From Desulfurococcales archaeon (GTDB lineage Archaea; Thermoproteota; Thermoprotei_A; Sulfolobales; Desulfurococcaceae): 64,000 nt of DNA. The stretch is taken from positions 320,001 to 384,000 of the forward strand of contig JALVYU010000026.1 in assembly GCA_027022365.1 (NCBI GenBank), in the 5' to 3' direction. The notes under the pieces were generated by a model. That model was not told where the DNA came from, made no database searches, and saw only the letters and a program-made list of their open reading frames with translations. This document shows, piece by piece, positions 3,357 through 6,453 of the stretch; positions within the stretch are counted from its first letter, which is position 1; each line of letters begins with the position of its first letter. The position numbers and the translations under genes were made by a program.

Positions 3357-3806
3357 ATGATTAATAAAGAGAAGTTTGAATTCCTTGATCATCCAGCTGA
3401 TGTTTATATAAAAGCATATGGTGCAAGTCTACCGGAACTCTATGAAAACGCGGGGCTAGCATTGTTTGAGACTATGACTGATACTACCCTAGTAGAGCCG
3501 TTGAAAAAGTTTAGTATAGAGGCTGAGGGCTTCGATCTCGAGAACTTGCTATATAGATGGTTAGAGGAGTTGCTCTACGTATATTATAGCCATAATGTGA
3601 TGTGTAGCCGAGTAATAGTAGAAAGGATCGAGATTACAAGGCGGGAGGACTGCTTCATGTACACTATTAAGGGAGCATGTTATGGAGAAGAATTTGATCC
3701 GAGAAAACATGAAGCGCGCGTTGAAGTTAAAGCAGTAACATATCATTTAATGAAAATAATTAAGGACGAAGAGGGGTGGAAAGCCTATTTCGTTCTTGAT
3801 ATATGA
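3357..3806 (+). CDS. archease (RtcB tRNA-ligase cofactor)
   Basis: FEFLDHPADV...EVKAVTYH...FVLDI signature. Confidence 0.93.
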   Translation: MINKEKFEFLDHPADVYIKAYGASLPELYENAGLALFETMTDTTLVEPLKKFSIEAEGFDLENLLYRWLEELLYVYYSHNVMCSRVIVERIEITRREDCFMYTIKGACYGEEFDPRKHEARVEVKAVTYHLMKIIKDEEGWKAYFVLDI

Positions 3807-4405
3807 TTATCTATCGAGCTTAAAAACTCGGCTATTTTAACAGAGCATCTTTCACAATAATACATTGTCTTATAATCAACCTCAAAGACAGAGTTGCTGA
3901 AGCTCATAACACATTTAGGATTATTACAGTGCCCGAGACCTAGTAAATGCCCTAATTCATGAAGAATTTCTTTCGTCACGCGCTCGACGTAGAGATCATA
4001 CCTTTTGCCAGCATATTCACTAGCAGAATAAAATATCGGATCAAGCCTTTGAGCGGATACAAAAGCTATGCCTCTAGATGGAGAGGCCTCCCCAAACACG
4101 AAGTTAAGGCCTTCATCATAAGCATCTATGTATCCGACACCAATAACGAAAACACAGCCATCCCTAAGATCCCGAAATATCTCCGCGAGATAATCGAGTA
4201 TACACGGCCCAACATACTGTCTCCTAGACCAATCAAAACAAGACATCGGAAGCTTCAGGACCTCAGGCCATACCTCCACATCAATATACGGCGAAATACT
4301 GCTCAGGACCCCATATACATTCCTACGCCAATCCTCAATAAAATCAAAGACAAAACATCTAGTCAGCGGCACAATCAGTACCCTACTCCTCATTCCAGCC
4401 ATCAC
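3785..4405 (-). CDS. amzA: archaemetzincin (Zn metalloprotease)
   Basis: HELGHLLGLGHCNNPKCVMSFSNS...YCERC. Confidence 0.92.
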   Translation of the reverse strand: MMAGMRSRVLIVPLTRCFVFDFIEDWRRNVYGVLSSISPYIDVEVWPEVLKLPMSCFDWSRRQYVGPCILDYLAEIFRDLRDGCVFVIGVGYIDAYDEGLNFVFGEASPSRGIAFVSAQRLDPIFYSASEYAGKRYDLYVERVTKEILHELGHLLGLGHCNNPKCVMSFSNSVFEVDYKTMYYCERCSVKIAEFLSSIDNHISRTK

Positions 4406-4522
4406 TTCACATACCTATGTGTAGAATAGTGCCGCCGCGGGGATTTGAACCCCGGACAACCCGGTCTTCAGCTTCGCCGGATCACCCGTGCCAGGAGCCA
4501 ATATTTTCTTTTATGGCTACTG

Positions 4523-4537
4523 CTTATATATTTTATC
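4523..4537 (-). promoter_or_regulatory. BRE/TATA-like element (GATAAAA-TATATAAG) inside the intervening sequence
   Basis: TATATAAG ends 24 nt upstream of the first G of the 3'-half complementary leader (4499), which is canonical archaeal spacing. Confidence 0.55.
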
Positions 4538-5083
4538 CACTTTGACACCTGTGCTACCCCATAGATTGCTAGCTTGTACGCCTTATCTGATTTCCGTATA
4601 TGTGAATTAATACCGTAATTTTGCACAAGTATAGATTTTACCTGATAAAGCAAAGCTACGCTTTTGCTTGTGATCTCTATGGTTGGGTACTCTTCTACAT
4701 CAGGCTTCCTAGTATAGAATATTGTTCAGTCAGTATCAAATATCCCCCTAATTAACATATTAACATACTCGTTTTTTACCAATTCCCGCGGAATTGTTAT
4801 TATTGAGCTCTTCTTACCGGTCGGGAATCCTAGTTGTTTAAAGATGTTAAATAATTGTTTTGACTTGAATTCTATTCGGTAGGCTTTTGAACGGTATTTT
4901 ATTTTTGGTCTCTTGCCAATAATTTTTTCTATAAGTCTTGATATATGGAGCGTGTATTCGTAATCTCCTTCAGCTATCGAGAAGAAGTATTTACAGTTTT
5001 TACTATGATATAGTGATCCATCTCCAATCATTATTCCATAGAATTCCATAAACTCCTTAGTGTTAATTATGCTAGCCGTATTA

Positions 5084-5098
5084 GAAAAAAGAGAAGAA
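5084..5098 (-). terminator. U-rich terminator-like tract downstream of the tRNA 5' half and its complementary trailer
   Basis: TTCTTCTCTTTTTTC on the minus strand, about 20-35 nt after the trailer. Confidence 0.45.
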
Positions 5099-5314
5099 CA
5101 AGTATTAGAGGCAGAAAGGCTCCTGGCACGGGCGTCCACGGGCGCTCTCCCGGGCTGAGCTACGGCGGCATCGCTTACTAACATATTAATGTTACTGGTT
5201 TATTAGTTTTTATGGAGTGGTCAATTATTTGTACTCCTTTCAACATTTATTATGTATGGCTAGGAATGTCTACGTTAAAGCTATGGGGCTACCTTGTCTT
5301 GGGGGTGATCTTAT

Positions 5315-6022: not shown

Positions 6023-6026
6023 TTTT

Positions 6027-6086
6027 TCAGATTTTCCGGCTATCATCACCGCCCTTCTCGGGCTCAAGAGACCCTCTTATCATCAT
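6027..6086 (-). ncRNA. box C/D sRNA candidate with an internal hairpin
   Basis: ATGATGA-12nt-TTGA-GCCCGAGAAGGGC-GTGATGA-12nt-CTGA; TTTTTAGG about 25 nt upstream. Confidence 0.8.
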
Positions 6087-6150
6087 CAATGATAATACAT
6101 GGGTAAGTAAACCTAAAAACCCCGCCTATAATCCATAAAAACATGGATAC

Positions 6151-6229
6151 GCGGCGGTCGTCTAGCCTGGACTAGGACGCCGGCCCCCCAAGCCGGAGAT
6201 CCCGGGTTCAAATCCCGGCCGCCGCACCA
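6151..6229 (+). tRNA. tRNA-Gly(CCC), CCA encoded, C at position 33
   Basis: GCGGCGGTCGTCTAGCCTGGACTAGGACG CCGGC CCCCCAA GCCGG...GGTTCAAATCCC...GCCGCACCA. Confidence 0.93.
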
Positions 6230-6364: not shown

Positions 6365-6453
6365 TGGCGCCGGGGGCGGGATTCGAACCCGCGCGGGCCC
6401 CGTGGCCCACTGGCTCTCAAGGCCAGCCCCTTAGGCCGCTCGGGCACCCCGGC
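6365..6453 (-). tRNA. tRNA-Ser(TGA), CCA encoded
   Basis: Anticodon arm CTGGC CTTGAGA GCCAG, long variable arm, G73. Confidence 0.95.

Follow-up and report, generated by a model that had tools for sequence, protein, structure and literature searches.

Whether an interrupted archaeal tRNA gene yields one precursor spliced in cis, or two separately transcribed halves joined in trans, is the question raised by the tRNA-Phe(GAA) locus of a Desulfurococcales archaeon (assembly GCA_027022365.1, here G000), an organism documented solely in metagenomes of hydrothermal vents. The locus lies in a 64,000-nucleotide (nt) stretch of contig JALVYU010000026.1 (positions 320,001 to 384,000), referred to as the window; coordinates are window positions unless a contig is named, and all features of the locus are on the minus strand. 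The first-pass annotation of this DNA had read the locus as a possible nascent split tRNA, with a terminator after the 5' half and a promoter before the 3' half. The locus is one tRNA-Phe(GAA) gene with a 666-nt mobile bulge–helix–bulge (BHB) intron between tRNA positions 30 and 31. Comparison with related genomes suggests one precursor, spliced in cis (probability roughly 0.7), and leans against separate tRNA halves made as two transcripts, which we regard as improbable.

The gene spans positions 5169–4430. Exon 1 (5139..5169; 31 nt, tRNA positions 1–30) and exon 2 (4430..4472; positions 31–73, with the anticodon GAA at 4469–4467) join into a 74-nt tRNA and enclose the intron (4473..5138). 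ARAGORN with introns allowed yields tRNA-Phe(gaa) with a 666-nt intron; with its default setting, no tRNA-Phe gene is detected at the locus. Since default tRNA finders overlook the interrupted gene, tRNA-Phe would appear absent from such genomes. The identical 31 nt and 43 nt abut directly in intronless orthologs, which occur in several other genera and, within the same genus, in G001; the G001 gene is called tRNA-Phe by ARAGORN, and both exons of the window gene are identical to it base for base. The intron ends are set by these orthologs together with the BHB geometry, and the splice points are independent of reading the geometry alone, because the exons abut in the intronless genes. The gene is preceded by a promoter resembling a B recognition element (BRE) with a TATA box, TAAAAACTAATAAACC (5197..5212), which scores 10.2 bits with a 16-column matrix trained on the upstream sequences of 35 tRNA genes in this genome, tRNA-Phe being held out.

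The intron ends form a canonical hBHBh' motif, with a 4-bp helix and two 3-nt bulges on opposite strands that hold the splice sites. The 5' strand (5138..5146) consists of the outer bases A5146 and G5145, the central helix C5144–C5141, and the bulge C5140-G5139/T5138 (the slash marks the splice site); the 3' strand (4470..4478) consists of the helix GGCG (4478–4475), the bulge A4474-A4473/G4472, and the outer bases C4471 and T4470. A5146 and G5145 pair with T4470 and C4471, and C5144–C5141 with G4478–G4475, leaving the bulges CG/T and AA/G. Covariation was assessed for tRNA-Phe introns at 30/31 from fetched loci, which are the best BLAST matches and no random sample: 28 distinct intron sequences, 22 of them of 21–84 nt and six of 527–670 nt, six further loci being intronless. 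The partner GGCG of the central helix is present in all 28 introns; the 3' bulge is AA/G in 26 and AG/G in two; the adjacent helix h' occurs as 15 distinct sequence pairs, and on average 3.75 of its four positions are paired over the 28 introns.

Beyond the motif, the 5' helix arm (5118..5137; GGA, then a 17-nt arm) pairs with the 3' helix arm (4479..4499): 5134–5118 with 4499–4483 over 17 bp, including one G-U, then, past a bulged A, 5137–5135 with 4481–4479 over 3 bp. The first-pass annotation had described a complementary flank of 15 nt; the complementarity is real, and the length is in fact 17 bp, the bulged A, and 3 bp. Compensatory changes are seen in the arms of G002 and G029, and a G-U change in those of G003. 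The minimum-energy fold lengthens the helix by pairing the T-rich tract that follows the 5' arm with the A-rich one that precedes the 3' arm; the extension was rejected, because L054 and G156 have C-rich tracts that are unable to pair likewise. An Rfam scan of the intron gave no family at E ≤ 1, group I introns included, and the sole Rfam matches at the locus are weak tRNA-like ones across exon 2.

The genome encodes the enzymes required for splicing, with two tRNA_int_endo (PF01974) matches at 104.5 and 40.6 bits and two RtcB (PF01139) matches. The latter are both full-length, at C26:388867-390171 and C29:2021-3283 of G000, the second on a 3.3-kb contig; it is either a true extra copy or a contig from another organism.

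The intron carries a LAGLIDADG homing-endonuclease frame (4468..5139), which runs from a GTG over the 5' splice site, or from an internal ATG at 5049, to a TGA at 4470–4468. Between this ATG and the TGA the frame matches Pfam LAGLIDADG_3 at 40.1 bits (cut-off 22.5) and LAGLIDADG_2 at 36.5 bits (cut-off 25); intein endonuclease domains in the PDB also give weak alignments to it. The junction GTG (5139–5137) is composed of the final exon-1 base and the first two intron bases and is in frame with the endonuclease, while the stop codon is U33-G34-A35 in the anticodon loop of exon 2. Because the GTG spans the 5' splice site and the stop lies in exon 2, the complete frame exists only in the unbroken precursor. 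As to a promoter of the endonuclease itself, no matrix match falls in the 5' leader among the top eight of G000 or of G005, its sister genome. Excised archaeal BHB introns are circularised; if this one is, an in-frame AUG would arise from its last A and first TG, and in G156, where the intron has 654 nt, a multiple of three, that frame would contain no stop.

In two-motif LAGLIDADG proteins each motif closes with an acidic residue and then glycine. Here motif 1 (GIMIGDG) is complete, and motif 2 is without its final G, as a premature TGA (4726..4728) replaces the glycine after GIFDTD; both motifs are complete in G005 and in the proteins P0002–P0005. G005 is 96% identical over 1001 nt, reads GGA at this codon, and has an intact frame of 193–203 aa. 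Among contigs from four metagenome runs, position 4728 (plus strand) is C and not A in X6, X10, and X11, and agrees with the window in X2; the X2 contig is near-identical to the window and may be the source of the window DNA, and the X10 contig is shallow, with the site near its end. By this comparison the TGA change, predicted to inactivate the endonuclease, is very recent and polymorphic between strains. The first-pass annotation had already described the locus as a mobile intron whose endonuclease is decaying, with a BHB and complementary arms rich in GC; this description agrees with the Pfam matches, the premature TGA, and the covariation.

A second LAGLIDADG-like frame in G000 (C7:505-1035, near the contig start) has 26% identity to the intron enzyme (E 2e-8). 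As this is the only further match and a distant one, the intron is no repeat family in this genome.

Relatives show a series of states at the same site: endonuclease intact, start codon lost, frameshifted, internally deleted, reduced to about 155 nt, hairpins of 21–84 nt, and intronless. The endonuclease is intact in G005; G156, of another genus, has a 654-nt intron with the frame open and the ATG replaced; G002 and G003, of the same genus, have frameshifts and stops; L054, from a Thermoprotei metagenome-assembled genome, has an internal deletion and an intron of 527 nt. For G029, of another family, an intron of about 155 nt is implied, with the frame gone and the 3'-terminal ~70 nt kept; the intron ends lie on two contig ends with a 17-nt overlap (L021, first 200 nt of contig C36; L007, first 100 nt of contig C41). 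Hairpin introns of 40 and 43 nt in G119 (L035) and G171 (L045) keep the arm sequence of the long intron, and this common sequence links the two size classes; these hairpins may be either deletion remnants of the long intron or the hairpin type that an endonuclease gene once entered. The G001 allele is intronless, with the same neighbouring genes.

The 3' region of the long intron was found in 7 of 325 genomes of the order, and the intron occurs in three families. The endonuclease protein family is small: of 48 candidates, 14 proteins reach E ≤ 1e-5, and no named protein is among them. Eight proteins are at least 64% identical; seven of these keep the C-terminus, all seven ending in the translated 3' arm, and four, gene calls from metagenomes, read through the 5' arm at their N-terminus. 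Four full-length metagenomic proteins have 66–68% identity. In species-representative genomes, all archaeal loci of the family (5/5) are in tRNA-Phe. Metagenome joints that skip exactly 666 nt (4472 to 5139; X2, X10, X11) were also considered as alleles of this locus and rejected: only the exon parts of 31 and 44 nt fit the window and the flanks differ, so these contigs are taken as intronless tRNA-Phe genes of other organisms.

The proposed terminator is a pyrimidine tract, TTCTTCTCTTTTTTC (5084..5098), with a T6 run at 5090–5085, the sole run of at least four T in the 666-nt intron; the proposed promoter of the 3' half is a BRE/TATA-like motif, GATAAAATATATAAG (4523..4537), 24 nt before G4499. 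Both are found where the first-pass annotation had placed them, the latter within the C-terminal coding region of the endonuclease. They are real motifs and exceed chance expectation only modestly; in the endonuclease frame they read C-S-S-L-F-S and W-I-K-Y-I-S, respectively, and both seem better explained as ordinary AT-rich coding sequence (L-F-S, I-K-Y-I).

The T-run varies between near-identical strains: it is T5 in X10, and a 4-nt deletion leaves T4 in X11 and G005. No run of at least four T is present in the first 60 intron nt of G156 and L054, or in the available 78 nt of G029. In X6, T6 occurs together with the intact GGA codon of the endonuclease. The leader that holds the T-run is open and in frame with the endonuclease in four of six DNA lineages (G000, G003, G156, L054), with 21–34 codons and differing sequences; by chance, the right frame is expected in one case of three, and an open leader with a probability of 0.12–0.33. 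Since the leader stays in frame despite its differing length and sequence, the pyrimidine tract is probably translated.

With the promoter matrix, the internal site (4535–4520) scores 8.6 bits; the training sites range from 5.0 to 16.1 bits (median 11.6), and 9 of 35 score lower. Four sites within the intron score at least 8 bits, and after dinucleotide shuffling, 1.12 sites per intron reach 8.6 bits or more. A site ending 16–26 nt before the 3' arm is seen in 31 of 2000 shuffles, this placement window having been picked after seeing the site. The homologous sites score 8.6 (window), 8.6 (G005), 8.0 (G003), 9.7 (L054), 7.0 (G156), 6.4 (G029), and below 4 bits (G002), while the true tRNA-Phe promoters of six of the seven lineages score 10.2–13.5; the internal site is lower in every lineage tested. 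The motif encodes W-I-K-Y-I-S-S-S-H-K-R-K, with the homologous W-L-K-T-I-G-S-S-N, W-Y-K-K-I-G-F-S-N, and the like (W-L/Y-K-x-I-G-S/F-S-N) in relatives of 34–38% identity; a conserved protein motif and AT-rich codons would explain both the TATA-like motif and its conservation. A second promoter-like match, AAAAGAAAATATTGGC (4497..4512), codes K-R-K-Y-W and scores 9.4 bits here and in G005, but only 3.7–4.7 bits in G002, G003, and G156, and was rejected as a promoter.

If the locus instead made two primary transcripts, one would consist of the 5' half and its arm, ending at the T-run, and the other of the 3' arm and 3' half, starting near 4500; the halves would anneal via the 17 + 3-bp duplex, the BHB would be spliced in trans, and the gene would stand midway to an adjacent split tRNA. 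Several observations count in favour of this and against a single precursor. The motifs and their geometry are real, and the internal site has a placement that few shuffles reproduce. Runs of at least six T are avoided on sense strands, with 21 of them as compared with 305 runs of at least six A in the long open frames of the genome (903,540 nt; ratio 0.07, composition predicting about 0.20), which makes them plausible terminators; given this avoidance, T6 could halt part of transcription. In six of seven lineages the 15 nt that follow the 5' arm have a pyrimidine content of at least 70% and so resemble a tRNA trailer, as 49% of 37 tRNA 3' flanks reach this value, compared with 10% of random 15-mers. 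A promoter-like site about 20 nt before the 3' arm is present in six of seven lineages, at 6.4–9.7 bits, and the mini-intron of G029 keeps the TATA-like motif though its frame is gone; the latter favours a DNA-level role, as one observation, in a single case that spans a contig break. The duplex, GC-rich and with compensatory changes, has the character of the complementary trailer and leader of split tRNAs, and for the hypothetical halves (5169–5085 and 4500–4430) the computed free-energy difference of dimerisation (ddG) is about -21 kcal/mol at 90 °C. There is also a precedent, tRNA-Asp of Aeropyrum pernix, whose 121-nt "intron" contains a promoter 20–25 nt from its end (PMC3218864).

On the other side, the run that is T6 here and avoided genome-wide is T5, T4, or absent in close relatives, lies inside a leader kept in frame with the endonuclease, and stands beside an intact endonuclease codon in X6. 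The TATA-like motif tracks a conserved protein motif, scores below each of the six genuine tRNA-Phe promoters, and has disappeared in G002; composition alone would produce about one site of its score per intron. Moreover, the start and stop codons of the endonuclease need a continuous precursor. The long basal helix also closes introns of 40–84 nt at 30/31, which are far more likely to be spliced in cis; since the same helix serves these short introns, the stability of the dimer is no evidence for a split tRNA. We therefore hold the production of two transcripts to be quite unlikely. The internal site could still be used, but for the gene downstream, an archaemetzincin-like gene (3785..4402, minus strand; Peptidase_M54, Pfam 101.8 bits), whose expression it would restore after the 666-nt insertion upstream. 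The ATG of this gene (4402) is 27 nt past the tRNA end; no T-run and no promoter-like match is found between 4496 and 4402, the nearest promoter-like sites upstream on this strand being 4512–4497 and 4535–4520. The order of tRNA-Phe and archaemetzincin genes is kept in G005 and in the intronless G001, so co-transcription is likely ancestral, and the gene is probably co-transcribed with tRNA-Phe here. The internal site is, however, equally present in G156, G029, and L054, whose downstream neighbourhoods differ, and the coding-constraint explanation applies to this use of the site as well, which we consider unlikely. It is very improbable that the interrupted gene is a dead relic and that tRNA-Phe comes from another copy: ARAGORN recovers only 37–39 tRNA genes from this genome, an incomplete set that leaves room for a second, heavily interrupted tRNA-Phe gene, but none was found in the genome by ARAGORN or BLAST, both exons are identical to those of the intronless G001 gene, compensatory changes accompany an intact BHB and intact arms, and the arrangement is kept in six other lineages. 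The most far-reaching possibility is that the conserved TATA-like element fires, so that the 3' half and the archaemetzincin mRNA are made without read-through of the intron, and that the strain-specific T6 already stops part of transcription; the locus would then be a living intermediate toward a split of the Aeropyrum tRNA-Asp type, and introns with homing endonuclease genes (HEGs) would be the common source of the short 30/31 introns of the order and of 30/31-split tRNAs. We see this as a long shot.

Under the preferred reading, that of one cis-spliced precursor, transcription would start from the promoter at 5212–5197 and run on into the archaemetzincin gene. The GC-rich arms would zip the 666-nt intron shut and present the hBHBh' motif, the two splicing-endonuclease paralogs would cut the bulges, and RtcB would join the exons. 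Translation of the endonuclease would start at the junction GTG or at the internal ATG 5049. At the DNA level, the intron would have spread by the LAGLIDADG enzyme cutting intronless tRNA-Phe genes, repair then copying the intron in, for which the intronless G001 allele with the same neighbours and the occurrence of the intron in three families give indirect evidence; the GGA-to-TGA change in this strain may be an early step of a cycle of invasion, decay, and loss.

The surroundings of the locus form a small tRNA neighbourhood, with tRNA-Gly(CCC) at 6151–6229 (plus strand) and tRNA-Ser(TGA) at 6365–6453 (minus strand). A C/D-box small RNA-like sequence with box C, D', C', and D-like motifs is located at 6025–6090 (minus strand); it matches Rfam sR20 at 25.6 bits, under the gathering score of 44. 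Nearly all detected tRNA genes of G000 are on C26, and ARAGORN finds no tRNA genes on C31 (494 kb) and C30 (93 kb), with the intron search on or off. The tRNA-Met gene on C1 (5.4 kb; approximately 4350–4457) has a bacterial-type TTGACA ... TATACT promoter upstream and not an archaeal BRE/TATA; C1 is probably a bacterial contaminant of the bin.

Archaeal rRNA BHB introns with HEGs are known from enzymes such as I-DmoI, I-PorI, and I-ApeI. LAGLIDADG genes have been described in such introns, which parallel the intron studied here in several ways: the BHB core is the substrate of the tRNA splicing endonuclease, the basal helix is long, a LAGLIDADG frame occupies the intron, and both presence/absence polymorphism and endonuclease decay occur (PMC4496867; PMC6125680). 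As far as the available text of these papers goes, the present intron differs in its host (tRNA and not 16S or 23S rRNA), its insertion at 30/31, start and stop codons that span or lie past the splice sites, and an endonuclease family seen only in tRNA-Phe. Bacterial group I introns with HEGs are likewise mobile introns with a homing endonuclease in the anticodon arm of tRNA; they are self-splicing ribozymes (PMC3984707), whereas no group I model matched here. A full-text literature search, with most subscription journals outside its reach, brought up no archaeal tRNA BHB intron described as carrying a homing endonuclease. The word "homing" does not occur in a 2014 review of tRNA gene diversity (PMC4033280), and a 2023 meeting report, in its available part, presents tRNA introns as elements that transpose, with no enzyme named (PMC10714607). 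The paper to which the first-pass annotation referred, on an endonuclease remnant between adjacent split halves, could not be found; "homing" is likewise absent from the available text of a paper on split tRNAs (PMC3218864).

According to that text, archaeal tRNA BHB introns had lengths of 11–129 nt in genomes sequenced by 2011, and adjacent split tRNA-Asp halves are present in A. pernix and Thermosphaera aggregans (Chan et al., 2011; PMC3218864), the "intron" of A. pernix hiding a promoter and two adjacent transcripts. That locus resembles the present one in its long interruption, the same broad archaeal group, a promoter-like site about 20–25 nt before the 3' end, and GC-rich complementary flanks. 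It differs in that its promoter beats 63% of tRNA promoters, while the site here beats 9 of 35; in that its two transcripts are backed by Northern blots and reverse transcription PCR, while the reading here is drawn from DNA comparison; and in that its joint is the canonical 37/38, while here the interruption is at 30/31 with a reading frame across the whole interval (PMC3218864). Split tRNA-Lys(CUU), as found in Nanoarchaeum equitans and Staphylothermus, shares the 30/31 joint and a canonical hBHBh', but its halves are kilobases apart, with their own promoters, and belong to a different tRNA (PMC3218864). Crenarchaeota also have short non-canonical tRNA introns, for which transposition has been proposed (Fujishima et al., 2010, cited in PMC10714607 and PMC4033280). 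These are similar in their non-canonical position and BHB, 22 of the 28 introns at 30/31 having 21–84 nt; unlike them, as far as these sources describe them, the intron here carries an enzyme that could move it.

The origin and movement of archaeal tRNA introns, and their relation to split tRNAs, are a long-standing open question. That 30/31 also joins the known split tRNA-Lys genes keeps the idea of a split tRNA worthwhile despite the weak signals; of greater interest is the tRNA BHB intron with an endonuclease and a full decay series. Together with its relatives, this locus places a homing endonuclease inside a tRNA BHB intron and displays, at one and the same site, every stage from the intact element through a 21-nt hairpin to the intronless gene, which offers a concrete route for the gain and shrinkage of non-canonical tRNA introns.

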